Shown here: positions 36,653 through 58,784 of the stretch, piece after piece
Position numbering within the stretch: the stretch's first letter is position 1
Layout: every line of letters starts with the position of its first letter
Origin: an uncultured candidate division Zixibacteria bacterium
GTDB lineage: Bacteria; Zixibacteria; MSB-5A5; UBA10806; 4484-95
Assembly (NCBI GenBank): GCA_963668625.2
Contig: CAXXKA010000010.1
Location: 414,218-478,217, forward strand
DNA length: 64,000 nt
Reading direction: 5' to 3'
Made by a program: the position numbers and the translations under genes
The notes under the pieces: generated by a model
Told to the model about the DNA's origin: nothing
Databases searched by the model: none
Seen by the model: only the letters and a program-made list of their open reading frames with translations

Positions 36653-36721
36653 TCGAGTTAACGGTTGAGAACTACTGAGAGTAAATACAAGTAAATTTCT
36701 CGAAATAACTGTTTTCATACC

Positions 36722-36759
36722 AAACCCGTATTTTGTATTATACAACAGAATACGGGTTT
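36722..36759. terminator. Hairpin between the FN3 gene and the sensor kinase
   Basis: AAACCCGTATTTTGT...ACAGAATACGGGTTT. Confidence 0.55.
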
Positions 36760-36768
36760 ATTCGTTTT

Positions 36769-42000: not shown

Positions 42001-43798
42001 ACGAGGTGAGATCAATTATTATGTAGGCATGGGCAGGGATATCTCCGAACGGAAAGCCGCCGAGAGGGCTATCGCTCAACGTCTGAAATACGAGGAAGGG
42101 CTGGCGAACTGTTCCCAGGCACTCCTGACCGGCGATGATCCCGGGCGAGCAATCGACCAGGCTCTGAGTTACCTGATGAAGGCCACCGATGTCAGCCGGG
42201 TGTATATATTCGAAAATTTCGAGCATGAGGAGAAAGGCCTGTGCGCTCGAATGATTCACGAGGTCACGCTCGAAGAAGAGGAACCGCGGCTGGAAAACCC
42301 GCTATTGCAGAGGCTGCCTTACGGAATAGCTTTGCCTTTCTGGCAGAAATTTTTAGAGATGGGCGACCCGGTTGGATTTACTATAGATGACATACCCGAT
42401 AAGAGCAGAGAGCTACTGGAGAGTTTTGGAGTCTATTCGATGGCGGCTATCCCAATTACCGTAGATGGTAAATGGTACGGTTTCCTGGGATTCGATGATA
42501 CCAGGGTGAAACGCGAATGGGGAGATGACGATTTACGAACTCTTCAAACCGCCGGCGAGATGATAGGCATACATATCGAAAGAAGACGGTTCGAAGAGGC
42601 GTTAAGTGTCAGTGAGGAGAGGTTCAGGACGCTCGTAGAAAACGCCAATGACATAATCTATTCCACCGATGAGCATAATGTCATAACATACGTATCACCG
42701 ACCGTAAAAGAGGTACTCGGTTATGAACCCGAGGAGATGATAGGTATCAGCGCCGAATCGCTGTTGCATGAGACAGACCGCGAGACATCCGAGATATTCT
42801 ATAAAACAGGTGAATTCAAACAACGCGAGCGATGGTCCGGGTATCGATTCAGGATGATGCATAAAAACGGCGGCTACAAGTGGTTCGTATCCAACGCCTC
42901 GGTGTTGTTCAATGATGACGGCCAGGTTAGAGAGATTATCGGCGTAGCCCACGATATAACCGAGATACAAAAGTTACTCGAGGCTCTGGAAAAAGCAAAC
43001 GAGGAAATTAAATCCGCCCAGTTGCAGCTAATTCAATCGGAGAAAATGGCCTCGCTGGGTATGCTGGTCGCAGGTATCGCGCATGAGATCAACACCCCTA
43101 TAGGCGCGACCTCCAGCATGCACAATACGGCGGTAAGAGCGCAGGAGAAACTTCAGAAATATCTCAAAGAGAAATTCAAGGATGATATAGATAAAGATGA
43201 GATCCTTCAAAAAATATTCAGGATAATCGATGAGGCCAATAAGATAATCGAATCCGGCGCGGGACGGGTTACAAATATCGTGAGGCGTTTGAAATCGTTT
43301 GCCCGCCTGGATGAGGCCGAGTTACAAACCGTGAATATCCGTGATGGCCTGGAGGACACGCTTACGCTTATTCATCACGAAATCAAACATGATATATCGG
43401 TAATTAAGGAATTCAGCGAATTACCGGAGATTGCATGTTTTCCCGGTCAGCTTAACCAGGTATTTCTGAACCTTCTGGTGAATGCTTCGCAGGCAATCAC
43501 GGGAAAAGGGACAATAACGATACGCACCTATCTGAAAAACGACAGGGTGTACGTTGAGCTCTCCGATACCGGCTCAGGAATAAAGCCGGAAAACATGAGT
43601 AAGATATTCGATCCCGGTTTTACAACTAAAGGGGTTGGCGTGGGAACCGGACTTGGGCTTTCGATTTGCTTTAAAATTATCCAAACTCATAGGGGAAAGA
43701 TTACCGCCTCCAGCAAGATTGGACAGGGAACGACTTTTAAAATAGAACTGCCGACTAATCTCGAAAAATTGCTCGAGAAAAGAAACAATGATGATTAA
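39002..43798 (+). CDS. Cytoplasmic hybrid kinase: REC, multiple PAS, two GAF, HisKA-HATPase
   Basis: N-terminal IEDD...CDLNMP...LTAHG...KP receiver; several PAS/PAC (DITE/DISE) motifs; GAF segments; AHEINTP and GTGLGL. Confidence 0.92.
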   Translation: MVIDKKLLRVLYIEDDPHQRKELSHFLRAKKFRVTVAASGKVGLKYFVSRSFDAILCDLNMPNINGLKVLEKVRSVNESIPFILLTAHGTISLAVKAIKQGADHFIHKPAPHDEITVTLKQLIDRSRLMRRLQDSERTLKLVSDNLPDVIYSLNAKGEFTSLSKGVEQSLKYKPSELLGTSVFDVIHPDDRKRVLNGYTDSIKSGDGKTRTLQFRMISRNGESRYYEISRKLVFENGKAVRSDGIARDITERIKLENQLREYSQQLEKKVEERTKRLSRANRQLAELNKISNRFSEIYDQQKIYDLAPKMLIKSLDFSRAYLAIKLENNLEIISYCCHQNMTAGLIKYIEDVKKGKIKLPPHFKRCFKNKKTAFIPDLKAEKSWPKKPTYLARAKSMVIAPLVIENEAVGLIVGFKDDESESLDNQDVQRFEMYAKIVSFALSNIRAYQSLERKVEERTKSLRDANEQLRKKTDEIDYSRIELAKANVELLSVQEQLEAKNDEMKKILDELSRKHRELQIVVDSAPEVILLVNNENVVQLVNKAVREFFGLDKTEVVGIDFNLFIERISKNFSDEAKFLKIIETLIGRPDNLETFDITELQKRSLKCIGDNPQLFAPTVIAIKDEKGAEVGRLWDFVNITKFIEAEQRVKAIVNTSPIPTIISKIDSGKVLYANEHLAKLVGMNRSDVVGHSTTEFYFDTNDRDKVIEGLKRNGYVRNIEIRLKRIDGTPVWTIFSLVVTEISGEKVILGGIYDISQQKEVEAALISERNFVTAILDTTSSLVVVLDREGRVVRFNRACEEITGYKSYEIKDLVFWKTLIIPDEIDLVKARFNSMINGEFPIQGENYWLTRTGEKRLISWSNTALLDSEGEVTYIVATGIDITEQRQAQQDLKRAYENLAQANDNLTLYKEIFMNTNDGIMIMNNEAIVLERNPVQGEHSGVSDDELIGKKPSFMIGDKKFEDIFASAVKTGSYRGELDFKRRDGVRKIVDLMVFPLKNERGEINYYVGMGRDISERKAAERAIAQRLKYEEGLANCSQALLTGDDPGRAIDQALSYLMKATDVSRVYIFENFEHEEKGLCARMIHEVTLEEEEPRLENPLLQRLPYGIALPFWQKFLEMGDPVGFTIDDIPDKSRELLESFGVYSMAAIPITVDGKWYGFLGFDDTRVKREWGDDDLRTLQTAGEMIGIHIERRRFEEALSVSEERFRTLVENANDIIYSTDEHNVITYVSPTVKEVLGYEPEEMIGISAESLLHETDRETSEIFYKTGEFKQRERWSGYRFRMMHKNGGYKWFVSNASVLFNDDGQVREIIGVAHDITEIQKLLEALEKANEEIKSAQLQLIQSEKMASLGMLVAGIAHEINTPIGATSSMHNTAVRAQEKLQKYLKEKFKDDIDKDEILQKIFRIIDEANKIIESGAGRVTNIVRRLKSFARLDEAELQTVNIRDGLEDTLTLIHHEIKHDISVIKEFSELPEIACFPGQLNQVFLNLLVNASQAITGKGTITIRTYLKNDRVYVELSDTGSGIKPENMSKIFDPGFTTKGVGVGTGLGLSICFKIIQTHRGKITASSKIGQGTTFKIELPTNLEKLLEKRNNDD

Positions 43799-43892
43799 TA
43801 TTGATTTTAATCGATTGAAAATAATTAAACGATTCACTGTGTTCGAATCAAAATAACGTGTTGATCCGAGTTTTTATTCAGGGGAGATTCTT

Positions 43893-45239
43893 TTGAGGAG
43901 TTTCGATAGACGAAAAGTTTTTAATTCAACTATGATTACATGTTTATTGACGGCGATAGCGGTTATTTTTCTTTACCAGCCTCCGGTATCTGCCGCCGGC
44001 GTACGAGATAATGATGGCTTCGATGACATGGATAGCGATTCCACCGGGCAAATCGAGTATCCCGAGCGTATGAAAGACAGGGAGACATGGGAGTGGATAT
44101 TGTCCTCTCCGGGGCTGTTGATCAATTTACCGTTCGCGATTACGCTTAAAGTTACCGAGAAAGTAGTCTCGACCGTTTATCAGCCCCGGATGGTTGGCTG
44201 GATGTACGATTTGACCACCTCCGATGACAGCACACGCGCGATTCGACCGGCTTACAGTTCACGAAGCGGACTGGGTATCAAGATATATCAGAAAGAGATG
44301 TTGAATGAGGAATCGAAAATCGAGCTGTCGGCCAAAGCTGGTTTTTACAATCGCCAGAAATACCGGTTGTCGTTCGAGGATTTTCGAATCGCAGACACGG
44401 ATTTCTTCACCGATTTCAGCGCCGGTTACAGATTTCTGCATAACCAGGAGTTCTACGGAATCGGGCCCGACAGCAGGAAGTCCGATCAGACGGATCATGC
44501 CCTCGAACGCTGGTGGTTGTACTGGGATTTGCGATACAGGTTGTCGGAACGCCTGAAATATTCGGTCGGATTGACATTCGAGCATACGAACATTCTTCAA
44601 CGCGTGGGCAACCATGAAGCCCCTGCGACTATAGAGGTATACGACGCCTCGACCTTGCCGGGATTGGAAAACGAGGTTCGTATCCTCGGTTATACTACCG
44701 GGTTGGAGTACGATTCGCGCAACTCGATCGGCGGTCCCCGGCGGGGTCAACGTATAAGACTGAACTCCGGCATATACGAGCAGGTCGGGGATGATAGATA
44801 CGAATTTTGGAAAATCAATGGCGAGATTCGTCAATACATACATCTATTCGCAGGCAGGGTAATTCAACTCCGGCTTGACTGCGAGATAAACGAACCCATT
44901 TCCGATAAAGAGATTCCTTTCTACTACCTGGGCGAGCTTGGTTGGATGGAAACCATTCGGGGATATCCGCGCGGCAGGTTCTGGGACAAGGATATGCTAT
45001 TAGGTTCGATAGAGTATCGTTGGCCGATCTGGCACCGGCTGGAGACGACAATCGATGCTTTTCTATTCTACGATTTCGGCCAGGTGGCTAACGATATTTT
45101 CAGAAATTTGGAGGCGGATGATATCCAGCATGGATTCGGCGGTGGGTTCAGGGTATGGAACGATGAGACGGAATCATTATACCTGGTATTCGCCGGAAGT
45201 AATGAGGATTTCCGGGTTTTCCTCGGGTACAATAAATAA
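43893..45239 (+). CDS. Omp85 (BamA/TamA-family) outer-membrane beta-barrel without POTRA domains
   Basis: Signal peptide; YDSRN...P..G, LG...IRGYPRGRF.D, EYRWP, FYDFG.V and GFGGGFR motifs. Confidence 0.85.
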   Translation: MRSFDRRKVFNSTMITCLLTAIAVIFLYQPPVSAAGVRDNDGFDDMDSDSTGQIEYPERMKDRETWEWILSSPGLLINLPFAITLKVTEKVVSTVYQPRMVGWMYDLTTSDDSTRAIRPAYSSRSGLGIKIYQKEMLNEESKIELSAKAGFYNRQKYRLSFEDFRIADTDFFTDFSAGYRFLHNQEFYGIGPDSRKSDQTDHALERWWLYWDLRYRLSERLKYSVGLTFEHTNILQRVGNHEAPATIEVYDASTLPGLENEVRILGYTTGLEYDSRNSIGGPRRGQRIRLNSGIYEQVGDDRYEFWKINGEIRQYIHLFAGRVIQLRLDCEINEPISDKEIPFYYLGELGWMETIRGYPRGRFWDKDMLLGSIEYRWPIWHRLETTIDAFLFYDFGQVANDIFRNLEADDIQHGFGGGFRVWNDETESLYLVFAGSNEDFRVFLGYNK

Positions 45240-45249
45240 GCAGGGTGTT

Positions 45250-46953
45250 ATGATGATTAATACGAAAAAAGTACCGGGTTTGATATGCCTGATATCGATA
45301 ATAATTTTTTCTGCGTGCGGCGGACATCGCGCATTCGTACCGTCACCGGTTATACCCGATGACCGTCAGCATATACCGGAGCCCGAGGAATACGAATACA
45401 GCGAGGTTGCCGACGCTTTCGATATGCTTATCTCCAACCAGTTGGAACAGTCACTCGATTTGTCCCGTCAGTTTAGACATCTTACCAATGATCGCAAGCA
45501 GGCTTATAACGTCAATGCTTTCGATGAGGTTCCGAACTCGAGCTGGTTTACCAATAGAAACGCCGCCCGCCAGATGAGTATAGCGGAACTTCGACGCGGG
45601 CCTGATACGGGAGACGGCCCCGACACGACCGGCAAATGGACTGTCACCCGAGCCAAGGTCGAGGGTGTTACGCCGGGCTTTCATATCAAGGACAAGCGCG
45701 GTGACCGCTACCTTATCAAATTCGATCCCAAAGGTTACCCCGAGTTAGCGACCGGGGCGGAGGTAGTTTCTACCAAACTGTTTTATGCGATGGGCTATTT
45801 CACACCTGAAAATTATATATCTTACTTCTATCCCGAAAGCCTCATGGTGGGGGATAAAGTGAAATTCACCGACGCCAACGGCAAAAAACGATTCATGTCC
45901 GAGCAAGATTTAAAAGACCTTATCTCACGTATAGAGGTTGGTGTCGATGGCAGGGTGCGAGTCGTTGCCAGCAAATATATTATCGGTGTAGCCAAAGGGC
46001 CGTTTACTTACGAGGGGGTGCGCAAGGATGATCCGAACGATTTCATTCCGCATCAACATAGGAGAGAGCTTAGAGCGCTGTATGTTACGACCTCGTGGCT
46101 TAACCATACCGATACGAAAGCCGGTAACTCGTTCGATAGCTATATAACCGAAGATGGCAAAAGTTATATCCGTCACTACCTGATCGATTTCGGCACGACA
46201 TTCGGCAGCGCCGCTCGTGGGCCGTCCGCTGGCAAAATCGGGCATGAAAACTCTATCGATCCTCATATGTTGTTGACGAGAACATTTGCCCTGGGATTGT
46301 ACTATCCCGATTACGATAAATATGACGATGTAAAATACAATTCCATCGGTCTGTTCGGCTCGGAGTTGTTCGATCCGGGACATTACAAGCCGCTAATTCC
46401 GAATCCGGCGTTCGAGAATAAAACCAATCGCGATTGCTACTGGGGAGCCAGGCTAGTAATGTCGTTCACCGATCATCAACTCGAGGAGATCGTCAAGGAG
46501 GGGCAGTACTCCGATCCTGCCGCCGAGGCGTATCTTCTGAAAGTGCTTAAAGAGCGACGCGATAAAATAGGCCGTTACTGGTATGCGCGAGTTAATCCCC
46601 TTGACTATTTCCGACTGATGAGAATAAGGGGAAGCTGGCATCTTTGTTTCGAGGATATGATGGTGCTGGGTAATCTCGAGGAATCGAAGGATACTAAATA
46701 CCGTGTCGTGTTCGAGCCTCATGGCGACAAGGTAGAATCGGAGACTGATAAAAGACGTATCGATTTGAAAGACCAACACGCGGTCTTTTTGAGTCATGCG
46801 GATGACGCAAGTTTTTTTGATAAATTCCCCGTTGGCGAAGTAACGATTTATACTTTCAGGAATTCAACCGGGAACTGGAGTAAATGGCTGAAAGTATATA
46901 TTCAGTACGATAAGGAATCAGCCAAAATTATGGGAATCGAAAGGCAAGAATAG
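45250..46953 (+). CDS. Lipoprotein with atypical protein-kinase-like (CotH/HipA/PI3K-like) motifs
   Basis: ORF track gives 45055; likely start is ATG 45250/45253. Lipobox FSAC; YLIKFD (Lys), AEVV (Glu), HTDTKAGN (catalytic loop) and YLIDFG. Confidence 0.7.
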   Translation: MMINTKKVPGLICLISIIIFSACGGHRAFVPSPVIPDDRQHIPEPEEYEYSEVADAFDMLISNQLEQSLDLSRQFRHLTNDRKQAYNVNAFDEVPNSSWFTNRNAARQMSIAELRRGPDTGDGPDTTGKWTVTRAKVEGVTPGFHIKDKRGDRYLIKFDPKGYPELATGAEVVSTKLFYAMGYFTPENYISYFYPESLMVGDKVKFTDANGKKRFMSEQDLKDLISRIEVGVDGRVRVVASKYIIGVAKGPFTYEGVRKDDPNDFIPHQHRRELRALYVTTSWLNHTDTKAGNSFDSYITEDGKSYIRHYLIDFGTTFGSAARGPSAGKIGHENSIDPHMLLTRTFALGLYYPDYDKYDDVKYNSIGLFGSELFDPGHYKPLIPNPAFENKTNRDCYWGARLVMSFTDHQLEEIVKEGQYSDPAAEAYLLKVLKERRDKIGRYWYARVNPLDYFRLMRIRGSWHLCFEDMMVLGNLEESKDTKYRVVFEPHGDKVESETDKRRIDLKDQHAVFLSHADDASFFDKFPVGEVTIYTFRNSTGNWSKWLKVYIQYDKESAKIMGIERQE

Positions 46954-46960
46954 TAACTAA

Positions 46961-48214
46961 ATGTTATTCAAAAAAATATTAACCTGCCTGATAGTAACCG
47001 CATTACTTTTAAATTTAAGCTGCGCTACCAAAGGACTGGTAAGCGAAAAGTACGATGAATCTTTTTATCGGGTAAAAAAGCTTCTGCCGGATACGAAATT
47101 CGAGGAAAATGAGCCATTCATCGTCATAAGCGATAATCAGGCCGCGTTCCGTGGCTATCATATGGCCCTTTCTAAAGACCGCTGGACCAGCCCGTGGATG
47201 CTGGCCGTACCGTTCTATCAACTGTATCTTTTGGGGAATGGCGCTGTTGGCGTGCTCAACTTTCTCCGTCACAAGCCGGATTACGGGCATAATAACCGTC
47301 TTATGGTACGGGATGCTATTTACGAAGCCGCCGGGCAAACCGATGCCGCGTTCATCCTGGATATCGGCGATATAGCCGCTCATGACGGCCGTCGTCCGGA
47401 GCACTGGAAAATGTTTCTCGATGATTACCACGCCGATCATCCTATCTTAAAGGAGATACCGTTTCTGCCGGTAATCGGTAATCATGATAGCGCCAACGAT
47501 ACGACTTATGGCTGGCCGAATTATCATGCCATATTCGGATACCCTCGTTTCTATACGGTAGAGTTTCCCGATGGTGTCATATTCATACTCGATTCGAATT
47601 TCATCATCGACCAGCGCGATAAATTGGATGATGATTATCAGGATGAGTTGTTCAGCAAGTGGTTTGTCTCGCAAGATTCCGCAAATAAATCATGGCTGGA
47701 GAATCGATTAGCACAGTATAAAGACAAATCTTTTAAGATAGTTGCCATGCATCACCCTCTGTTTTCGTTTAATAAGCACCATCACGACTGGTACGATCCG
47801 GGTAATGGTAATACTCTTCTCGAAAAGAGAAAAAAGCTCGTGGACTTGTTCGAACGCTATGAAATTCAACTTGTACTGTCAGGTCATGACCATCTCTACC
47901 AGCATAACCTGCTGAAATACGATAATCATGAGATGCATTTCATTGTCGGCGGTGGCGGAGGAGGAGCGCTTCGCAGCCTGGCAAAGGATGATAATATATC
48001 CGAGTATAGTAAACAATTCTCCGATCAGGGATTCGATATCGTGCAATTGAAGCAGCAAAAAATGTATCATTATTTCGAGATAAATTTTGACAAACGACGA
48101 TTGAAACTGGATATTTACGAGGTAACCGGGAATAACGGCAATCAACCGAAACTGGCGGATCGAATCGTAATAGACGACGATGCAATACCGGAAATGAACG
48201 AGGTCGGCAAATAA
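46961..48214 (+). CDS. Lipoprotein calcineurin-like metallophosphoesterase (purple acid phosphatase-like)
   Basis: Lipobox NLSC; motifs SDNQ, GDIA, GNHD, MHHP and SGHDH. Confidence 0.88.
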   Translation: MLFKKILTCLIVTALLLNLSCATKGLVSEKYDESFYRVKKLLPDTKFEENEPFIVISDNQAAFRGYHMALSKDRWTSPWMLAVPFYQLYLLGNGAVGVLNFLRHKPDYGHNNRLMVRDAIYEAAGQTDAAFILDIGDIAAHDGRRPEHWKMFLDDYHADHPILKEIPFLPVIGNHDSANDTTYGWPNYHAIFGYPRFYTVEFPDGVIFILDSNFIIDQRDKLDDDYQDELFSKWFVSQDSANKSWLENRLAQYKDKSFKIVAMHHPLFSFNKHHHDWYDPGNGNTLLEKRKKLVDLFERYEIQLVLSGHDHLYQHNLLKYDNHEMHFIVGGGGGGALRSLAKDDNISEYSKQFSDQGFDIVQLKQQKMYHYFEINFDKRRLKLDIYEVTGNNGNQPKLADRIVIDDDAIPEMNEVGK

Positions 48215-49524
48215 TGGCCAATCCTTTTAAAGCCGTGATGAATATCAAGCGCGAGGAATTTCCGCTTGCGTTATTGATGTTTTTCTACTTTTTCCTGGTT
48301 ATAACCAGCTTCTGGATTTTAAAGCCAATAAAGAAGACATTATTTATCGGGTATTACAAGGCCGGGGGATTCGATTTATTCGGCTGGCTGATGAGCGCCT
48401 CGCAGGCGGAGCTTCTGGCAAAAGTGCTTAATATGATCGTAGCCTTAATCGCGGTGGCTGTGTTTACCTGGCTTACCCGACGGTTTCGCCGTCAGCAGTT
48501 AAGTATTATATTCAGTGGATTTTTCATGATTTGCTACGCGCTTTACAGTTTGATTATCAATGCTCCCTCCGATATTACGGTCTGGTCATTCTATCTGTTC
48601 GGTGATCTTTTCTCCACCTTGATGGTGGCTACTTTCTTCGCGTTCGTCAACGATAGCGTGACTCCCGAGAAGGCCAAGAGGATGTACGGCTTGATCGGTT
48701 TGGGGGGAGTCGTAGGCGGCGCGTTCGGTAGTTCGGTAGTGCGGGTATGGATCGATCAGCTTTCGAATGCCGCCTGGTTGTGGGTAACCTTCGGTATAGC
48801 TATATTGATAATCGTTGTCGCTTTTCTCGCCGGAAAACTGGTAGCCAAGGATCCACCGCCGGAGATTATCCGTATTGATGAAAAGAGCGATGAATCGAAA
48901 GCCGGCGCGGCAATAGAAGGCGCGAAATTGGTGTTCAAGTCCTCGTACCTTCTGGCTATCGTGGGTATTGTCGGCCTGTACGAGATAGTCTCGACCGTGC
49001 TGGATTTCCAGTTCACGGCTACGATCGAACATTTCGTGGCCGGCGAGGATATCGGGCGACATTTTTCGACTGTATTTACCATTACTAATTTCGTGGCTAT
49101 GTTCGTTCAGTTATTTCTCACCAGTTTCATCATGACCAGATTCGGTGTGAAAACCGCCCTGTATATATTGCCCTCGGTGATGCTTATCGCCTCGGGATTT
49201 TACCTGGCCTTGCCGATTCTCTGGGTTGGCTCTTTCTTGAATACCGCGGATAACGGTTTCGCCTATTCGATCAACCAGTCCTCCAAGGAGGCGTTGTACG
49301 TGCCTACCACCAGAGATGAGAAATATAAAGCGAAAGCTTTTATCGACATGTTCGTACAACGGTTTGCCAAGGCTCTGGCGGTCGGTGTTAGTCTGCTTAT
49401 AACCACGATATTCACGGATTTCTCGAGTATACGCTGGTTATCGCTGTTTACGATAATAATCGTAGTCGTCTGGTTTTACGCGGTCAGGGTTGCAGGTAAT
49501 AAATTCGAAGAGATGGCCGGCTAA
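48214..49524 (+). CDS. NTT/Tlc (Npt1/Npt2)-family nucleotide transporter homologue, MFS fold
   Basis: ILKPIK..LF, F.AFVND...E.AKRMYG.IG, YSINQSSKEALY.P...KYKAKAFID.FV.RF motifs; start overlaps the upstream stop (TAATG). Confidence 0.85.
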   Translation: MANPFKAVMNIKREEFPLALLMFFYFFLVITSFWILKPIKKTLFIGYYKAGGFDLFGWLMSASQAELLAKVLNMIVALIAVAVFTWLTRRFRRQQLSIIFSGFFMICYALYSLIINAPSDITVWSFYLFGDLFSTLMVATFFAFVNDSVTPEKAKRMYGLIGLGGVVGGAFGSSVVRVWIDQLSNAAWLWVTFGIAILIIVVAFLAGKLVAKDPPPEIIRIDEKSDESKAGAAIEGAKLVFKSSYLLAIVGIVGLYEIVSTVLDFQFTATIEHFVAGEDIGRHFSTVFTITNFVAMFVQLFLTSFIMTRFGVKTALYILPSVMLIASGFYLALPILWVGSFLNTADNGFAYSINQSSKEALYVPTTRDEKYKAKAFIDMFVQRFAKALAVGVSLLITTIFTDFSSIRWLSLFTIIIVVVWFYAVRVAGNKFEEMAG

Positions 49525-49610
49525 AAAATCGTTTTGTTTGCTTTCGATAAAACATATAATATCACTATAAAAAACTATTCGTGCCGGCTGATCGATAAGG
49601 ATGATATTAG

Positions 49611-52442
49611 ATGCGTAGGCTGATCCAAAAATTATTCGATATCCGCGATGGTGAATGGCTTCGCGCTTTCATGATGTTCGCCTATATGTTCCTGATTATC
49701 GGTTCGCTGATGATAGTCAAACCAATTCGCAATTCTCTGTTTCTGACGAAATTCGGCGCTTCACAATTGCCTTTCGCCTACGTGCTCGTGGCTATCGTAG
49801 CCGCGTTCGTGGTCTGGATATACTCGAAAATATCATCACGTATCAGATTGAGCCAGCACATCTTTTATACGAACGTATTATTCATCGCAGCGTTCTCAAT
49901 TTCCTGGCTGCTTCTGAATAACGGCTATCAATCGGGTTGGTTTATCTACTCGTTTTATGTTTGTGTCGCGATTTTCGGCGTAATCAGCAGCGCTCAATTC
50001 TGGCTTTTGGCTAATTTCGTGTTCAATGCCAGAGAGGCGAAGAGGCTATTCGGATTTATCGGGGCGGGAGGTATCGTTGGCGGTATATTCGGTGGATACC
50101 TGACCAATTATTTAGCCGAGATATTAACCACACATAATTTGATTTTTATATGCATCGCTTTTCTGATTTTATGCATATTTTTACTTTGGAGTATCAGGAT
50201 GGGAGGCATCCGGCGTTTTCAAGCTGGCAAGTTTCAACGTCGTAATACCTCCGAAAGCGGATATGATGAAAGCCTCATTAAAATATTCAGTAATTCCCGT
50301 CACCTTTTATATTTGGCGGGGATAGTTGGAATAAGCGTTATAGTAGCCAACCTTGTGGATTACCAGTTCAGTGCTACCGCCTCCAGCTTTATAGAGAATG
50401 AGGATGAGCTAACTGCGTTCTTCGGTTTTTGGCTTTCGACACTAAGTGTAGTATCACTTGTCATTCAGCTTCTGCTCACCGGCAGGGTACTGAAATACGC
50501 CGGCGTCATATCATCCATGATGTTTCTACCCCTGGGGATTCTTCTCGGCGCTGCGGCAATTATGATATTTCCCGCTCTGTGGTCGGCGGTATTTATTAAG
50601 GTCAGCGACGGTAGTTTCAAACATTCGATTAATAAAGCAGGTATGGAGCTTCTTATTTTACCGATTCCCGCGAGGATTAAAAACCGCGCTAAAACGTTCA
50701 TCGATGTATTCGTTGATAACCTTGCTACCGGTATCGGCGGTATTCTACTCATAATCTTAACTCTGGTTCTCGATCTGTCCATCCAGCATATCAGCTTGAT
50801 GATAATCATTTTCGTCTTAATCTGGATCTACCTGGTTGTTAGGGTAAGAGGAGAATATATAGATTCATTCCGTCATGCTATCGAAAAGCGCACGATAAAC
50901 TTTGCCGAGCAGACGGTTAACCTCCAGGATGCCTCGGTGTTGAAAACCTTCATTAAAGTATTGGATGGTGAAAACGAACGCCAGATTCTTTATGTGTTGA
51001 AGCTATTCAGCGATTTCAAGAATAAAGAGCTTGCCCCATATCTCGAAAAACTGATCGACCATGATTCTCATGATATCAAAACAGCGGTGCTCCAGTTGGC
51101 ATTGGCCTATCCTGAAATCGATCTTTCCCGGAAAGCCGAATCCCTGGTCAGGGCGGAGAGTCAGGAGGTAAGGATTTCGGCCATTGATTATCTGTGCAAA
51201 CGATCTGATGACGCTGTTGCCTGCATAACTTCATATATCGAGGATGAAAATTTATATGTACGAGGCGCGGCTATGCTTCACGCGGCGGATATGATGAGCC
51301 GTGATGCTACCTTAAGAAAACGTCTAAATCTCAATGAGTATTATGACAGGATGGTAAAAAGTATAACTGATAGTGATAATAATGACAATCAGGTTGCCTA
51401 TATAAAAACCGCCGCGGCTGAAGTTGCCGGTATAGCGGGTGATACGACATTGTACCCATACATTCACCTAATGTTAAATGATAAAAATCTGGATGTTGTC
51501 AGGCAGGCTATCATTAGCGCTGGGCAATCGCATCAAAAAGAATTCATTCCCGTATTGATCCCACTTTTGGAGAGAAAGTATCTGAGGAAATCGGTACGTG
51601 AAGCTTTAGCCGAATTTGGCGAGGAAGTTGTTTCACCTCTGGCCGGGTATCTCGAAAATGAATCATCCGCCCGATCTATCAAGCTAGCTATTCCCCGGGT
51701 ACTTTCGCTAATCGATTCGCCGAAATCGATGAAAGTATTGCTAACTCATATCGACCAGCGAAACCTGATATTACGTTATGAGATTATCAAGGCCTTGAGC
51801 AGGCTTAAATCCAAGTACCCCAAGTTGAAAATAGACAACCAGAAGGTCGAACAGCATATTTATGATGAGAGTCGTAACTATTTTAAAGTGCTCACGGTAT
51901 TGAATTATCATCTATCACTCCGGCGTTTGAGCAGTTCCATGAAATCCGGTGATAACGATAACACGGTAGAAAAAGCCTTGACCCTGTTGATAAAGGCGCT
52001 GGAGGAACGGCTCGATAGTAACCTGGAAAGAATATTCCGTTTGCTTGGTTTGCGTTATATTCCCGATGATATGTACAATGCTTACCTGGGTGTACTGAGC
52101 AGAAAAAGCGATTTGCAGGCTAATTCGATAGAATTTCTGGATAACGTACTCGAGCCTAAATTGAAACGTCTGATTATTCCTATCGTGGAAACGACCTCCT
52201 CCGAGATATTACTGAGCCAGACCCATAATCTCATAGATGTCGATTTGCCGGTTAACGACCAGTGTTTCGAATTCATCCTTAACGGCAATGATAATTGGCT
52301 TAAAGTTTGCGCATTGTATTTTCTGACGGAATCCAGAAGCGATCGTTGTATGGATATTATCGCCAGGCTTACCAACGACTACGATCCGATGGTAAAGGAG
52401 ACAGCGAACAGGTATATCAAAATCATGAGAGAGTCGAATTGA
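49611..52442 (+). CDS. NTT/Tlc-family nucleotide transporter fused to HEAT repeats
   Basis: IVKPIRNSLFL, QFWLLAN.VF..REAKRLFG.IGAG, DYQF and HSINKAGMELL.LPI...K.RAK.FID; about 500-aa helical HEAT-like C-terminus. Confidence 0.88.
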   Translation: MRRLIQKLFDIRDGEWLRAFMMFAYMFLIIGSLMIVKPIRNSLFLTKFGASQLPFAYVLVAIVAAFVVWIYSKISSRIRLSQHIFYTNVLFIAAFSISWLLLNNGYQSGWFIYSFYVCVAIFGVISSAQFWLLANFVFNAREAKRLFGFIGAGGIVGGIFGGYLTNYLAEILTTHNLIFICIAFLILCIFLLWSIRMGGIRRFQAGKFQRRNTSESGYDESLIKIFSNSRHLLYLAGIVGISVIVANLVDYQFSATASSFIENEDELTAFFGFWLSTLSVVSLVIQLLLTGRVLKYAGVISSMMFLPLGILLGAAAIMIFPALWSAVFIKVSDGSFKHSINKAGMELLILPIPARIKNRAKTFIDVFVDNLATGIGGILLIILTLVLDLSIQHISLMIIIFVLIWIYLVVRVRGEYIDSFRHAIEKRTINFAEQTVNLQDASVLKTFIKVLDGENERQILYVLKLFSDFKNKELAPYLEKLIDHDSHDIKTAVLQLALAYPEIDLSRKAESLVRAESQEVRISAIDYLCKRSDDAVACITSYIEDENLYVRGAAMLHAADMMSRDATLRKRLNLNEYYDRMVKSITDSDNNDNQVAYIKTAAAEVAGIAGDTTLYPYIHLMLNDKNLDVVRQAIISAGQSHQKEFIPVLIPLLERKYLRKSVREALAEFGEEVVSPLAGYLENESSARSIKLAIPRVLSLIDSPKSMKVLLTHIDQRNLILRYEIIKALSRLKSKYPKLKIDNQKVEQHIYDESRNYFKVLTVLNYHLSLRRLSSSMKSGDNDNTVEKALTLLIKALEERLDSNLERIFRLLGLRYIPDDMYNAYLGVLSRKSDLQANSIEFLDNVLEPKLKRLIIPIVETTSSEILLSQTHNLIDVDLPVNDQCFEFILNGNDNWLKVCALYFLTESRSDRCMDIIARLTNDYDPMVKETANRYIKIMRESN

Positions 52443-52443
52443 A

Positions 52444-52472
52444 TTGACCATTTTGACAGAATGCGCTAATTT
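52444..52472 (+). promoter_or_regulatory. Putative internal sigma70 promoter for the cNMP-binding gene
   Basis: TTGACC-17 bp-TAATTT, then SD AGGAGG. Confidence 0.45.
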
Positions 52473-52504
52473 AATAGCGATATCAGGAGGAGACCGAAGA
52501 ACTT

Positions 52505-52930
52505 ATGCTGACAGCGGTTGAAAAAGTAATATTTCTTCAGGATGTCGACATTTTCCAGTTGATATCCACGGAGGATTTGGCCCGCGTTGCCACCATTACC
52601 GAGGAGATAGAGTATAAGGACGGACAGGAGTTGTTTAAAATTAACGATCTTTCCGATTCCATGTACATGGTTATTGAGGGTAAAGTTAAGATGGACAGGG
52701 ACGACCAAACCGTGATGATAGCCGCGCATAAGGATGTTTTCGGAACATGGGCGCTATTTGATGATGAAACCAGGGTGGTTAACGCGACCGTAATAGAACA
52801 GTCAACCTTGCTGAAAATAGATAAAGATGATTTTATCGATCTTTTGGCTGATAATGTAAGAATTACCCAGAGCGTTTTGAAAGCAATGGTTGTAAAACTT
52901 CGCAATTTGATGACCCGAACCAGGGTTTGA
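52505..52930 (+). CDS. Stand-alone cyclic nucleotide-binding domain protein
   Basis: EKV.FL..V.IF, LF...D.SD.MY.VIEG.V and FG.WAL.D...R...A motifs. Confidence 0.88.
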   Translation: MLTAVEKVIFLQDVDIFQLISTEDLARVATITEEIEYKDGQELFKINDLSDSMYMVIEGKVKMDRDDQTVMIAAHKDVFGTWALFDDETRVVNATVIEQSTLLKIDKDDFIDLLADNVRITQSVLKAMVVKLRNLMTRTRV

Positions 52931-53043
52931 CAGCCGAAAATATCAGCGAATTCTAAAATCTGGCTTGCTTATATGCAACTTTTTGATTTATTTATAGTAG
53001 TAATAACATTGAATCGGTGTAATAAACTTATTGGGAGACTGGG

Positions 53044-53526
53044 ATGGCAGATACAGATAGCAAAGAAGTAATTGTCATTGTTGATGATGAGGAGATGGTA
53101 TTAACCAGTCTCAGTTCGTTTTTATCCCTCGAAACCGGCTACAACGTAAAAACATTTCTTTCGGCCAAGGAGGCATTGGCTTTCATAGAGGGCAATTCTA
53201 TCGATCTGGTGGTTTCCGATTATTTAATGCCGGAAATGGATGGCATCTCTTTCCTGGCCGAGGTCAAGAAACTTCATCCCGAAGTACCGAGGATAATTTT
53301 AACCGGTTACGCCGATAAAGAAAACGCTATCAAAGCTATCAACGATGTCGGCCTGTTTCAGTATATCGAGAAACCGTGGGATAATGACGATCTATTGATT
53401 ATCTTCCGTAACGGCCTCGAAAAGCAACGCCTGATGAAGAAACTTCAGGATAAAATAAAAGAGATAAACGGCGCCTACGCCGAGCTCGATAATCTTCACA
53501 AAGAGATACTGAAGACTTTCATTTAG
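53044..53526 (+). CDS. Single-domain response regulator (REC plus short coiled coil)
   Basis: IVDDE, SDYLMP.MDG, LTGY and KPW motifs; no DNA-binding domain. Confidence 0.92.
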   Translation: MADTDSKEVIVIVDDEEMVLTSLSSFLSLETGYNVKTFLSAKEALAFIEGNSIDLVVSDYLMPEMDGISFLAEVKKLHPEVPRIILTGYADKENAIKAINDVGLFQYIEKPWDNDDLLIIFRNGLEKQRLMKKLQDKIKEINGAYAELDNLHKEILKTFI

Positions 53527-53649
53527 TTAATTAACTATTTACGATTGCTATATGAATGAACATTAGTATAGTTTATCATTGCTGTTCGGTATTTAGATTT
53601 CGTTCTGGAATATGGAAGAAAATAGAAACGAAGTTTTTCAAATACGGTA

Positions 53650-53675
53650 GGCTGCAAAATCGGAGCTTTGCAGCC
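53650..53675. terminator. Hairpin between convergent genes
   Basis: GGCTGCAAA-N8-TTTGCAGCC. Confidence 0.5.
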
Positions 53676-53749
53676 GGTAACAGCCGACTTAAGTCAGCAG
53701 GATAAAAGCCACCGGCGCTGTGCCCGATGGTAGTATACTTAATATAATA

Positions 53750-54817
53750 TCACCAATTTTCAGGCAAATGAAGTATCATAGCGAACGGCGGGTCATCCGG
53801 ATGCTTATCGTATATCAGTACCAGGCTTTTGCCTTTCTCGAACCAGCCCATACCCTCCCAGTTTACATTTTCCCAATCGCTTGCCCGTAATGATTCGATG
53901 GCTGCTTTCATATGTTTCGCCATCCTGATGCCTATACTCTCGTAGAAAATATGATCGAGATTATCCATGGCTTTTTTAGCGTGTTCGTTAATATCAATAG
54001 GATAGCCTAAAGGATTGCCTTCCAAATCGAATTTCTGTAGTATCTTATACTCGTATGATGCTCTCTCATCGGAATCCTCAGGCGGGCAGTTTTCCGATTG
54101 CAGCAATACTATCAAGCAGTCGACGCGATTATCGCCGACGAAATATTCATGCCAGGCTACTGCCGAGCCTCGATATCTCTGACCACGGGATTCATTGTCC
54201 GGAAGCGGAGTATCTAGCGCGAACTGTTGTGGTTTATGCGTATCGTCGCCGGGAATGCTATGTATCAGTACTCTTGGTTTAAGTGATTTGCCGTCAACGC
54301 ATTCTCGAATTTCCTCAGGGATGATAGCGCCGATCGGGTAGCCGCCTTCCCAGAGAACGGCCAACTCGTAACCTCCATGGCTGCTATTTTTTACCGCCAT
54401 GCCCTCCAGACCGCGATTGCCGAACTCGGTATACGATTTGTTATAGTATGATATTATCGAATACTGTTTGGTGTTTTTGTCTTTTTTCCCGATCAGCGAA
54501 TGCAGCAACTCGGATAATACGATTACTTCGCCGTCACCGGTTAAACCGATAGCCTCTAGATCGCCTGCCAACTCGGCTCCTGGCAATTTTACCTCGCGGG
54601 TTTTAGCCGGATCGATTGGTATTACATCGTAGTCATAGGCGGGTATATCGTACTCATAATACACGCCGGGTACATTATCGCTGACAATAAGCAGTTTATC
54701 ACCGGATCTGGTGATACCCGAGGCCTCCGTGATTTTAACTTTATTATCCTGACAAAATAAAACTGAAGTAAACACGAATAACATCATTAATATCAGGATG
54801 GATTTCATCGAAATCAT
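53750..54817 (-). CDS. Secreted hypothetical protein, phytase-like/SdiA-regulated-type beta-propeller
   Basis: Signal peptide; repeated EASG / DLEAI / GLEGM / NWEGM motifs, with SD near the N-terminus and YD near the C-terminus. Confidence 0.6.
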   Translation of the reverse strand: MISMKSILILMMLFVFTSVLFCQDNKVKITEASGITRSGDKLLIVSDNVPGVYYEYDIPAYDYDVIPIDPAKTREVKLPGAELAGDLEAIGLTGDGEVIVLSELLHSLIGKKDKNTKQYSIISYYNKSYTEFGNRGLEGMAVKNSSHGGYELAVLWEGGYPIGAIIPEEIRECVDGKSLKPRVLIHSIPGDDTHKPQQFALDTPLPDNESRGQRYRGSAVAWHEYFVGDNRVDCLIVLLQSENCPPEDSDERASYEYKILQKFDLEGNPLGYPIDINEHAKKAMDNLDHIFYESIGIRMAKHMKAAIESLRASDWENVNWEGMGWFEKGKSLVLIYDKHPDDPPFAMILHLPENW

Positions 54818-54956
54818 ATTATCTCCTTTTCCTGAACGGAATATACCAATAGTCGGCTCAGTAGTAAAGTTATGATTCGCCGCTAATTTAGCGGATTGTC
54901 ATTTTCAATTTTCGTACGTACCTGAACCGAATACCGGCTAATCGATAATCATTTCC

Positions 54957-56450: not shown

Positions 56451-56459
56451 GGCGATCCG

Positions 56460-58293: not shown

Positions 58294-58758
58294 ATGAAAA
58301 ACAGATTGGAAAATATTTTCGAATTCAGCGAGCATGTACTTTACGGCATAGTCGGGTTCTTTTTGGTATTCACGGCCGTGCTGATAATTTATGGGATCAT
58401 AGAATACACGATAACGCATATATTCACCGGTGAGATCGAAGCCGGAGCTATTCACATTATCGATAAAATGCTACTGGCTTTGATGGTAGCCGAGATTCTA
58501 AACACTATCAGATCATCATTCAAATCGCATAGCCTGGTTGCCGAACCGTTTTTGATAGTCGGCTTGATCGCTATCATCAGGCGCATACTCGTAATAAGCG
58601 TCGAATCGGCGCATGTGATAGGCATCTCGGCCGAGACATTCTATAAGTATATGCTCGAACTGGGTATTCTGGGGGGCCTGACGATCATTATCGTTGTCTC
58701 CATTTACATCCTTCGCAGAAAACCTAGAGCTGAAATAAAAACAAAAGAAATACCATAG
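58294..58758 (+). CDS. Phosphate-starvation-inducible PsiE-family membrane protein
   Basis: Four TM segments; LL.LM.AEIL.T...EPFL.VGLIA.IRRILV. Confidence 0.85.
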   Translation: MKNRLENIFEFSEHVLYGIVGFFLVFTAVLIIYGIIEYTITHIFTGEIEAGAIHIIDKMLLALMVAEILNTIRSSFKSHSLVAEPFLIVGLIAIIRRILVISVESAHVIGISAETFYKYMLELGILGGLTIIIVVSIYILRRKPRAEIKTKEIP

Positions 58759-58784
58759 ATTTTCTAACACACTGGGGGTGATCC

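Follow-up and report, generated by a model that had tools for sequence, protein, structure and literature searches.

How could a kinase act outside the bacterial cytoplasm, in a compartment where ATP is not made? This question is raised by a group of co-oriented genes situated in a 64,000-nt stretch of DNA (hereafter the window) from an uncultured candidate division Zixibacteria bacterium. The original prediction described seven genes, the first four of them nearly abutting, which encode a POTRA-less Omp85 barrel, a lipoprotein with kinase motifs, a lipoprotein metallophosphoesterase, a stand-alone NTT carrier, an NTT-HEAT fusion, a cNMP-binding protein and a receiver (REC) protein. Re-examination of the open reading frames and profile searches against Pfam and NCBIfam confirmed this observation in gene order, spacing and domain content (Table 1). 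The barrel gene starts with TTG and is separated by 10 bp from the kinase-like gene, which in turn lies 7 bp upstream of the metallophosphoesterase gene. A one-base overlap (TAATG) with NTT1 follows, whereas the remaining gaps amount to 86, 62 and 113 bp. For the kinase-like protein, the longest reading frame starts at 45055. However, its codon 66, at 45250, is ATG, and 34 homologues start about 20 residues before a conserved cysteine.

Table 1. Features of the gene set and its neighborhood (positions in the window).
Position	Strand	Predicted product	Length (aa)	Profile matches
36733-39015	+	7TMR-DISM sensor histidine kinase	760	7TMR-DISM_7TM, HisKA, HATPase_c
39002-43798	+	Hybrid REC-PAS(xN)-GAF histidine kinase	1598	Response_reg, PAS families, GAF, HATPase_c
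43893-45239	+	POTRA-less Omp85 barrel		Omp85 PF01103, E 6.5e-20
45250-46953	+	Predicted kinase-fold lipoprotein (KinL)	567	none in Pfam or NCBIfam
46961-48214	+	Secreted (probably lipoprotein) metallophosphoesterase		Metallophos PF00149, E 2.7e-7
48214-49524	+	Stand-alone NTT/TLC-type MFS carrier (NTT1)	436	TLC PF03219, E 1.2e-24; MFS_1
49611-52442	+	NTT-HEAT fusion carrier (NTT2-HEAT)	943	TLC PF03219, E 5.6e-14; HEAT_2, E 4.3e-20
52505-52930	+	Small cNMP-binding-domain protein	141	cNMP_binding PF00027, E 4.5e-17
53044-53526	+	Stand-alone receiver protein	160	Response_reg PF00072, E 7.1e-27
53750-54817		Phytase-like protein
58294-58758		PsiE

The absence of a POTRA domain from the barrel was confirmed by an AF2 model (pLDDT 85.3), which shows a signal helix at residues 12-27, a disordered, Asp/Ser/Thr-rich tail (disorder at 30-59), an N-terminal helical extension at 65-108 and 16 strands at 115-446. 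Structure searches with Foldseek returned the barrels of BamA and TamA as best hits (E 1.7e-12).

Although KinL lacks a known family, its AF2 model (pLDDT 82.5, pTM 0.85) displays a tether with helices, a predicted kinase domain (about 100-450) and a C-terminal beta-sandwich (about 450-567). Foldseek matched the model to the Golgi casein kinase Fam20 (4kqa, E 6.9e-6), to H. pylori CtkA (3akj, E 3.4e-5; TM-score 0.50-0.51 on target length), and to Fam20A and PI4KIIalpha. In 34 homologues of 48-81% identity, the Gly-loop (G139/G143), the beta3 lysine (K157), the HxDxKxxN catalytic loop (H286, D288, K290, N293) and the DFG motif (D313, F314, G315) are invariant. Still, the protein shows no significant sequence match to any solved kinase, either as a single sequence or as a profile, and TM-scores on query length are low (0.27-0.30), so that the assignment rests on a predicted model plus motifs. 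Weak hits to HipA_2 (PF20613) were obtained for 11 of the 34 homologues (best E 0.004), none of which reaches a Pfam threshold. KinL thus shares its fold class with HipA-family kinases and with CtkA, itself a secreted bacterial kinase according to its PDB title, but its catalytic loop and DFG motif read like those of eukaryote-type kinases, and it carries a lipid anchor, the tether and the beta-sandwich and has no toxin-antitoxin context. An extracytoplasmic location is supported by Cys23, which follows a hydrophobic leader and is present in at least 90% of the 34 homologues.

Kinase folds can also perform other reactions, as in SelO and SidJ, and acidobacterial relatives of 1009-1176 aa exhibit a degenerate catalytic loop and GFG instead of DFG, indicating that the scaffold persists without catalysis. 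It is therefore conceivable that KinL catalyzes other nucleotide-dependent chemistry such as AMPylation, or acts as a nucleotide-binding or structural subunit that regulates a transport or assembly function of the barrel, a reading to which the extensive, confidently predicted contacts described below would also conform. This alternative is considered unlikely, as every canonical phosphotransfer residue is invariant in the 34 close homologues and a phosphatase of one of two unrelated folds accompanies the kinase gene in 28 of 36 related loci, which points to a phosphate mark.

The barrel gene lies directly upstream of the kinase gene in 32 of these 36 loci. A model of the barrel-kinase complex reached ipSAE values of 0.64, 0.65 and 0.64, compared to 0.00 for the best of three controls. 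The mark that it passed was reached by 58 of 80 solved complexes and 2 of 110 mismatched pairs, although these counts hold only roughly because custom alignments were used. The runs agree in at least 86% of contacts and the pLDDT of the partners is at least 86. The interface covers barrel residues 54-96, 319-322 and 375-391, which correspond to the N-terminal helices and the ends of strands 10-13. This face is inferred to be periplasmic from the usual topology of Omp85 proteins and not from a membrane-aware model. Among the fold hits of the barrel was the BamA-RcsF complex (PDB 6t1w), in which a 16-stranded Omp85 barrel is likewise paired with a lipoprotein. Here, in contrast, there is no POTRA domain, and the lipoprotein is a 60-kDa putative enzyme predicted to dock under the barrel through the N-terminal helical extension, not inside the lumen.

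The metallophosphoesterase is closest to type 5 purple acid phosphatase (PDB 1ute, E 3.1e-6). In 11 orthologues, C21, D58, G136-D137, G173-N174-H175, H264 and G308-H309-x-H311 are invariant, which includes the metal motifs. The invariant Cys21 supports its proposed lipoprotein nature, although the lipobox is non-canonical in the window. In related loci, the metallophosphoesterase was found in 11 cases, while in 17 others a secreted PAP2 protein of about 285 aa occupies its position. The two were never found together and 8 loci show no phosphatase nearby. PAP2 (PF01569), the family of periplasm-facing PAP2 phosphatases and class A acid phosphatases, is not present in the window. This non-homologous replacement lends support to the suggestion that the phosphatase reverses the modification.

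The carriers belong to a family in which every characterised member imports nucleotides (PMC5381601; bioRxiv 10.64898/2026.03.31.715626). NTT1 matches the solved plastid ATP/ADP carrier AtNTT1 (PDB 9j3j, E 1.9e-13), yet NTT1 and NTT2-HEAT score far below the NCBIfam NTP/NDP-exchanger cut-off (79 and 44 bits, respectively, against 387). Orthologues of NTT1 (61-75% identity) were only identified in the closer relatives and in one further locus (L028; L numbers denote individual loci). NTT2-HEAT consists of a transmembrane domain (about 1-420) and HEAT repeats extending to the C terminus. This is the architecture of the NTT-HEAT clade of free-living bacteria (Major, Embley and Williams 2017, PMC5381601), whose members are likewise followed within a few nucleotides by a cNMP-binding-domain gene. 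That study states that their function is unknown and proposes regulation of ATP uptake. In the text consulted, it does not mention an Omp85 barrel, a kinase-like lipoprotein, phosphatases or two-component genes, whereas here the partners argue for supply to an extracytoplasmic enzyme.

NTT-HEAT lies within the examined locus (flanks of about 9-10 kb where the contig allowed) in 22 of 36 cases and in several orientations. At the genome level, the kinase and an NTT-type carrier co-occur almost perfectly: they occur together in 63, singly in 9 and not at all in 215 of 287 genomes from two phyla, and NTT-HEAT is present in 63 of 67 kinase-positive genomes. In the phylum of the source genome, all 46 carrier-positive genomes of 201 are among the 50 kinase-positive ones, while four kinase-positive genomes showed no carrier. 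In a second phylum, all 17 kinase-positive genomes of 86 are among the 22 carrier-positive ones, leaving five with a carrier and without the kinase. In 5 of 5 other genomes whose kinase locus showed no complete NTT-HEAT gene, a carrier was found elsewhere, and in one of them cNMP and REC stay beside the kinase. Related genomes are not independent samples, and NTT-HEAT also occurs in cyanobacteria and chlamydiae (PMC5381601), groups that these counts leave out. Parts move between the two loci but stay in the genome: PAP2 or the 420-aa protein lies beside NTT-HEAT in three loci (L040, L041 and L045), and cNMP-HK-REC lies beside the kinase in L004. Linkage of barrel, kinase, phosphatase, NTT-HEAT, cNMP and REC is thus conserved across several phyla and survives rearrangement. 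The arrangement is far beyond chance, and the notion that the genes are mere neighbors without a common function, for which nothing speaks beyond the absence of experiments, is contradicted by the conserved linkage and the genome co-occurrence and regarded as very improbable.

These data leave room for another scenario, in which the barrel-kinase-phosphatase module is real and extracytoplasmic but is not fed by the NTT-HEAT/cNMP/HK/REC module. The latter would instead sense or import a nucleotide or related solute as a transceptor and be linked to the kinase only through shared regulation or a shared pathway, while the kinase would take its phosphate from another donor, such as external ATP, another NTP, pyrophosphate or polyphosphate. 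In addition to the import function of characterised NTTs and the low family scores, this view is favored by the finding that NTT-HEAT-cNMP-HK-REC forms a self-contained cassette in 12 of 15 unlinked loci, and by the five genomes that have it without the kinase. On the other hand, the cluster has no transcription-factor output, so that shared regulation would need protein contact across the envelope, no alternative phosphate-donor enzyme is conserved in the loci, and the absence of any carrier-positive genome without the kinase within the source phylum is hard to explain for a general importer. This scenario is considered possible but rather unlikely.

With respect to regulation, the cNMP-like gene follows NTT-HEAT in 21 of 36 kinase loci and in 12 of 15 unlinked NTT-HEAT loci. 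Its phosphate-binding cassette is non-canonical (consensus FGTWAL...PRVVTAT in 22 orthologues) and lacks the cassette Glu, which makes a cyclic nucleotide ligand uncertain. The receiver, which has a C-terminal helical tail, is the best-conserved protein of the system, with 66-85% identity in loci where the kinase is 40-60% identical. No DNA-binding output is encoded, which fits regulation by protein contact. The two histidine kinase genes upstream of the barrel overlap by 14 bp. Near-full-length relatives of the first lie beside the cluster or directly before NTT-HEAT in nine loci, and full-length relatives of the second lie directly upstream of the barrel gene in L001, L018 and L019, and in part in L011, which is also one of the nine. 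Both are likely parts of the system that the original prediction had not included. Conversely, the stand-alone NTT1 and the metallophosphoesterase, which it had counted in, are lineage-specific and not core.

Taken together, these findings are best, though tentatively, explained by an envelope phosphorylation system in which a lipoprotein with a Fam20/HipA-like kinase fold is anchored in the outer membrane and docks on the periplasmic face of the barrel, held by the helical extension and two periplasmic turns. There it would phosphorylate a target at or near the barrel, one candidate being the barrel's own Asp-Ser/Thr tail, and a secreted phosphatase would remove the mark. As the kinase would sit where ATP is not made, the inner-membrane NTT-type carriers would supply nucleotide, most simply by exchanging cytoplasmic ATP for periplasmic ADP, and this supply would be gated by the cytoplasmic HEAT domain, the cNMP-like protein and the receiver, the latter fed by the two histidine kinases. 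The analysis establishes gene content, the modelled kinase fold and its motifs, export signals, conserved linkage, genome co-occurrence and a complex model that passes its controls, whereas kinase activity, the periplasmic side, the direction and substrate of transport (and hence ATP export), the gating and the phosphorylated target are inferred. The original interpretation, in which the carriers export ATP to, or exchange nucleotides with, a periplasmic or surface kinase, the phosphatase reverses the modification, the barrel translocates, anchors or is the substrate, and HEAT/cNMP/REC gate or report flux, is therefore supported in part: all of its elements that could be computed, including the kinase fold and the linkage in other genomes that had been named as tests, came out in its favor, while its central step remains inference. 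No description of such a system was found in print. The gene set, conserved in free-living sediment-type bacteria, suggests that these cells feed ATP to an enzyme outside the cytoplasm, which has not been described in bacteria.

A functional parallel exists in the eukaryotic secretory pathway, where Fam20C kinase operates with luminal ATP import by an ATP/ADP exchanger and with the secreted purple acid phosphatase ACP5. In both cases, a kinase of the Fam20/HipA-like structural class would work outside the cytosol, with a phosphatase closest to the type 5 purple acid enzyme and a dedicated nucleotide carrier in the membrane that bounds the compartment. However, the compartment here is a bacterial envelope instead of the ER or Golgi, the carrier belongs to the MFS/NTT and not to the SLC35 family, the kinase is a lipoprotein predicted to bind an Omp85 barrel, no sequence relation to Fam20 is detectable in Pfam, and regulation would proceed via HEAT, a cNMP-like protein and two-component proteins.

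Finally, the system might scavenge nucleotides or phosphate, with the barrel and secreted enzymes processing external nucleic acids or nucleotides and the NTT carriers importing the products. The import function of the NTT family, the role of secreted phosphoesterases as classic scavenging enzymes and the nearby genes for PsiE and a phytase-like protein would agree with this view. Yet a kinase has no role in scavenging without an ATP source, phosphatases would destroy the presumed substrates of the carriers, and Omp85 barrels are not known as solute channels, so that this reading is considered improbable. Also against this reading, the phytase-like protein recurred in 1 of 36 loci (L018), a count that does not cover PsiE.

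The window lies in a 4.3-Mb genome of 10 contigs that is 95.9% complete, and the sample of genomes of its phylum includes a Zixibacteria-labelled MAG (locus L003 and genome G085 share coordinates). The seven genes named in the original prediction are present: the first four are separated by gaps of 10 and 7 bp and by a one-base TAATG overlap, and six of the seven products were confirmed by Pfam as Omp85 (E 6.5e-20), Metallophos (E 2.7e-7), TLC plus MFS_1 in the 436-aa carrier NTT1 (E 1.2e-24 for TLC), TLC plus HEAT_2 in the 943-aa carrier NTT2-HEAT (E 5.6e-14 and 4.3e-20), cNMP_binding (E 4.5e-17) and Response_reg (E 7.1e-27). The second gene, which encodes the kinase-like lipoprotein, matched no Pfam or NCBIfam family. 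Two histidine kinase genes lie directly upstream. A scan of positions 36000-54500 found 32 promoter-like sites, compared with 34.8 +/- 5.4 in shuffled sequences, and 26 terminator-like sites, compared with 18.6 +/- 3.6, and was not informative on the limits of the operon.

Features of the window and of related loci (L numbers) for which coordinates were obtained
Sequence	Coordinates	Strand	Feature
Window	1-34000	+	many ORFs of 576-1241 aa
Window	31761-33152	-	glutamate dehydrogenase
Window	34235-36652		805-aa protein with six fibronectin type III domains and a type IX secretion sorting tail
Window	36722-36759		15-pair hairpin, strongest terminator-like site of the scanned region
Window	36733-39015		7TMR-DISM histidine kinase
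Window	39002-43798		REC-PAS-GAF hybrid histidine kinase
Window	43893-53526	+	seven ORFs of the system
Window	45250	+	adopted start of the kinase-like lipoprotein
Window	53750-57791 and 58294-61987	- (53750-57791)	phytase-like/SdiA-regulated beta-propeller protein, two multihaem cytochromes, PsiE and a cbb3-type cytochrome c domain protein
L003	8596-9915		barrel gene with an in-frame stop
L007	11767-12399		adenylate kinase gene, convergent to the kinase gene
L010	8169-8813		adenylate kinase gene, convergent to the kinase gene
L023	11071-11490		barrel gene reduced to a 139-aa ORF
L026	11037-12299		secreted protein of about 420 aa (example)
L028	6988-9003 and 5304-7055		eukaryote-type Ser/Thr kinase with a PEGA domain and FHA-GAF histidine kinase, next to the kinase gene

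The start of the kinase-like protein was placed according to 34 homologues of 48-81% identity, which begin at this position. In the window protein a hydrophobic leader is followed by Phe-Ser-Ala-Cys, and Cys23 is present in at least 90% of the 34 sequences, mostly preceded by Gly, so that the protein fits a bacterial lipoprotein as judged from sequence. The AF2 model (pLDDT 82.5, pTM 0.85) comprises a tether with two helices, a bilobal domain and a C-terminal beta-sandwich. The best Foldseek hits of this model in the PDB are all atypical kinases, namely the Fam20 Golgi casein kinase (4kqa, E 6.9e-6), H. pylori CtkA (3akj, E 3.4e-5, TM 0.50-0.51 on target length), Fam20A and PI4KIIalpha, with probabilities of 1.00 to Fam20 and CtkA and 0.96 to PI4KIIalpha. 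TM-scores are modest and reach only 0.27-0.30 on query length, as expected for a three-part protein. Every canonical phosphotransfer element is invariant in the alignment of 34 sequences: a Gly-rich turn (G139, G143), Lys157 in strand 3, His286-x-Asp288-x-Lys290-x-x-Asn293 and Asp313-Phe314-Gly315, in an order that fits the secondary structure of the model.

Sequence links to named families are weak. The window protein matched no family at E up to 1, and thus neither HipA_2 (PF20613), Fam20C (PF06702) nor CotH (PF08757), while HipA_2 matched 11 of the 34 homologues with a best E of 0.004. The Atlas neighbours Fam20C, HipA_2 and CotH score 0.77-0.79 and can be considered as leads only. PDB searches with the single sequence and with the 34-sequence profile found no kinase, but only chance hits at E 0.14-1.7. 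The family itself is large and unnamed: a word-indexed search found at least 3690 proteins, and a profile search found 3736 representatives at 50% identity with E up to 0.001, of which 1297 had E up to 1e-30. All members that carry a name are annotated as “hypothetical” or “lipoprotein.” A search for longer relatives that might be fusions found 11 Acidobacteriota-labelled proteins of 1009-1176 aa (P0121-P0131) with about 600 extra C-terminal residues. The five that were tested had no Pfam domain in the extra part, and none is a fusion to another part of the system. In one of them, P0128, the catalytic loop is degenerate and DFG reads GFG, so this is probably a pseudokinase branch. A non-phosphotransfer or scaffolding role of the kinase fold is considered an unlikely alternative.

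The product of the first gene belongs to the Omp85 superfamily (PF01103; 72.3 bits against a cut-off of 24). Its AF2 model (pLDDT 85.3) shows a signal helix, a disordered stretch at residues 30-59, helices at 65-108 and 16 strands at 115-446, and its best Foldseek matches are the barrels of BamA and TamA (E 1.7e-12 to 1e-10). The loop-6 Arg-Gly-Phe/Tyr motif of the superfamily is represented by Arg-Gly-Tyr at 356-358, between strands 11 and 12, and R356 and G357 are present in at least 90% of 27 orthologues. In contrast to BamA/TamA/TpsB-type proteins, no POTRA domain was found by Pfam or in the model, and the NCBIfam BamA score is 56.6 bits against a cut-off of 297.

Among 36 related loci, 16 from named MAGs of Zixibacteria, Calditrichia, KSB1, LCP-89, Krumholzibacteriia, Gemmatimonadota and Bryobacteraceae and 20 from the phylum sample, the barrel gene is located directly upstream of the kinase gene, at 50% coverage or more, in 32. 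Of the other four, L013 and L015 lack upstream sequence, L023 has only a fragment and L009 has none. The interrupted barrel gene of L003 and the short ORF of L023 could reflect assembly errors or decay.

A complex model of the two mature proteins supports binding but does not show it. The ipSAE values were 0.64, 0.65 and 0.64 against a best of three controls of 0.00, a mark that was reached by 58 of 80 solved complexes and 2 of 110 mismatched pairs, although these counts hold only roughly because our own alignments were used. The runs agree in at least 86% of contacts, and partner pLDDT is at least 86. Confident contacts on the barrel were found at residues 54-96, which include a conserved Tyr-Pro-Glu-x-x-Lys segment and the helices, at 319-322 and at 375-391. 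With the usual Omp85 topology the last two groups are the periplasmic ends of strands 10-11 and 12-13, and it is therefore inferred that the kinase hangs under the barrel in the periplasm. Just before the contact segment, 24 of 27 barrels carry an Asp-Ser/Thr pair within a 22-column window. As this tail is rich in Ser, Thr and Asp, the pair is a candidate acceptor site but only a lead.

The third gene encodes a calcineurin-like metallophosphoesterase (PF00149; 31.7 bits against a cut-off of 21.5). The five metal-binding motifs of this family (D, GD, GNH[DE], H and GHxH) correspond to D58, G136-D137, G173-N174-H175, H264 and G308-H309-x-H311, which are invariant in 11 orthologues. Cys21 is likewise invariant in the 11, with a canonical lipobox in about half of them and Leu-Ser-Cys in the window, and this protein too is probably a lipoprotein as judged from sequence. 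The closest match is type 5 purple acid phosphatase (1ute, E 3.1e-6 over 119-334). However, the Tyr ligand of the GDxxY motif of purple acid phosphatases is absent, as the corresponding sequence reads Gly-Asp-Ile-Ala-Ala-His (136-141).

The metallophosphoesterase occurs in 11 of the 36 loci. In 17 others a secreted PAP2 phosphatase is present instead, and all five of the tested proteins of about 285 aa scored E 6e-19 to 1e-23. The two types never share a locus, while eight loci show neither, two of which are very short. This replacement by an unrelated enzyme of the same chemistry is the strongest argument that a phosphate mark is written and erased. A role of the system in scavenging nucleotides or phosphate appears very unlikely. 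In L007 and L010, two Calditrichia-labelled loci without a phosphatase nearby, the convergent adenylate kinase gene may be lineage synteny only.

In 11 of the 17 PAP2 loci (L021, L023-L026, L030-L032, L034, L036 and L037) the PAP2 gene comes with a conserved secreted protein of about 420 aa that follows the kinase gene and is absent from the window. It shows 46-55% identity among 10 sequences and many invariant residues. None of five sequences had a Pfam family and none of ten had a meaningful hit at E up to 1. A PDB profile search gave only YwaC at E 0.059, which was not supported by Pfam, the Atlas gave nothing named above 0.86, and no similarity to the metallophosphoesterase of the window was found.

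Both carriers are members of the NTT/TLC family (PF03219), with 87.4 bits for NTT1 and 52.2 bits for NTT2-HEAT against a Pfam cut-off of 21, but their NCBIfam scores (TIGR00769) of 79.2 and 44.4 lie far below the cut-off of 387.2. They are distant members and do not belong to the characterized exchanger clade. NTT1 matches the solved plastid ATP/ADP carrier 9j3j at E 1.9e-13, and its orthologues occur only in the closer relatives. A crude hydropathy scan found 11 segments in each carrier, with room for one more weakly hydrophobic helix, compared with the twelve transmembrane helices of the family. In its architecture, with TLC and HEAT_2 in one protein and the cNMP_binding gene starting 62 bp downstream, NTT2-HEAT corresponds to the NTT-HEAT arrangement described in 2017 by Major and colleagues, who state that its function is unknown (PMC5381601). 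In one family of the phylum (genomes G015, G003, G009, G016, G018, G023, G057, G075, G109 and G143), the carrier (about 510 aa) and the HEAT protein (about 440 aa) are encoded by adjacent separate genes, and the HEAT part is therefore a separable module.

The cNMP-like protein is a member of PF00027 (62.2 bits against a cut-off of 27.5), but lacks the canonical phosphate-binding cassette, Gly-Glu followed by Arg-Ser/Thr-Ala. In our reading of 22 orthologues, the position after the conserved Gly is Thr in 13, then Ala, Val or Ile, and never Glu. An Arg follows in 17 of the 22, succeeded by a hydrophobic residue, Val in most, rather than Ser/Thr, and five have another residue at the place of the Arg. 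The receiver protein (PF00072; 94.2 bits against a cut-off of 30.2) has Asp-Asp-Glu-Glu at 14-17, and Asp59 in Ser-Asp-Tyr-Leu-Met-Pro is in the place expected for the phospho-acceptor, as read from the sequence. It is the best-conserved protein of the system, with 66-85% identity where the kinase has 40-60%, and it has no output domain, which fits action by binding.

Analysis of the genomic context revealed that NTT-HEAT lies within the fetched locus, with flanks of about 9-10 kb where the contig allowed, in 22 of the 36 loci, on the same or the opposite strand and on either side. In 15 NTT-HEAT loci that are unlinked to the kinase or are second copies, the order (HK)-NTT-HEAT-cNMP-(HK)-REC recurs in 12, and PAP2 or the 420-aa protein sits beside it in three. 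In one Calditrichia-labelled genome, cNMP, HK and REC stay with the kinase while NTT-HEAT lies elsewhere, and in L028 an NTT1-type carrier lies upstream of the barrel gene.

Across 201 genomes of the own phylum, the kinase was found in 50 and an NTT-type carrier in 46, all of which are among the 50. The exceptions are the four genomes G131, G140, G167 and G172, and 151 genomes have neither. None of the 8 other genomes of the window's own family has either, so the set is gained or lost as a unit. The group of the Gemmatimonadota-labelled genome G206 holds only 2 genomes and could not serve for replication, and the phylum of genome G201 was used instead. Of its 86 genomes, 17 have the kinase and all 17 are among the 22 with a carrier, whereas five have the carrier only and 64 have neither. 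As related genomes are not independent, no P value is given. Several genomes of this second phylum hold two or three copies of the kinase family, including a second type of about 32-36% identity.

The linkage points to one system with two modules: an outer-membrane module of barrel, kinase and phosphatase, and an inner-membrane and cytoplasmic module of NTT-HEAT, cNMP-like protein, histidine kinases and receiver. That these genes form one functional system is considered highly likely. The simplest link between an extracytoplasmic kinase and a relative of ATP/ADP exchangers is nucleotide supply, as an exchanger in a cell that makes its own ATP would run ATP out and ADP in. This is the proposal of the original prediction, in which the carriers export ATP to, or exchange nucleotides with, a periplasmic or surface kinase; it survived every test that was applied and is partly supported. 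Gene content, sequence motifs, linkage and co-occurrence rest on direct observation, whereas nucleotide transport and its direction, kinase activity, the target, the periplasmic position and any ligand of the cNMP-like protein are inferred, and the full model therefore remains tentative.

Searches of the literature on NTT-HEAT proteins, on bacterial, periplasmic or secreted Fam20-type kinases, on periplasmic ATP and on outer-membrane kinases returned no description of this system, judged for part of the papers by title or the start of the abstract. A review states that the route of ATP into the periplasm is unknown, that the inner membrane is impermeable to ATP and that Gram-negative bacteria are not known to encode an ATP/ADP translocase for this purpose (PMC7432876). 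A 2026 preprint calls the mitochondrial carrier the only known ATP exporter and describes NTTs as importers (10.64898/2026.03.31.715626). A carrier module that senses or imports is regarded as an unlikely alternative, though the least unlikely of those considered. The cluster gives the widespread NTT-HEAT proteins of free-living bacteria a concrete and testable partner, the putative extracytoplasmic kinase. If the model holds, regulated phosphorylation exists in the bacterial envelope with an energy supply controlled from the cytoplasm. This would parallel the closest analogue, the eukaryotic secretory pathway, where Fam20 kinases operate with luminal ATP import and a secreted acid phosphatase.

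A further reading, which is unlikely but not excluded, is a trans-envelope relay in which ATP itself is the transmitted signal. In this model, the histidine kinases would phosphorylate the single-domain receiver, which together with the cNMP-like protein would open the HEAT-gated NTT carrier. The resulting pulse of periplasmic ATP would let the outer-membrane-anchored kinase phosphorylate the Asp-Ser/Thr tail of its Omp85 partner, or cargo passing it, and so switch the function of the barrel, while the secreted phosphatase would reset it. If true, this would be the first dedicated ATP supply to the bacterial periplasm, the first NTT working as an exporter and the first reversible phosphorylation cycle at the outer membrane.

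The genes downstream of the system in the window, which include the phytase-like protein, PsiE and the cytochromes, are not regarded as conserved with it, a view that rests on the phytase-like protein, which recurred in 1 of the 36 loci, next to REC in L018. On the upstream side, the fibronectin type III protein is followed by the hairpin, and its relatives lie upstream in L001 and beside second NTT-HEAT copies in L047 and L048.
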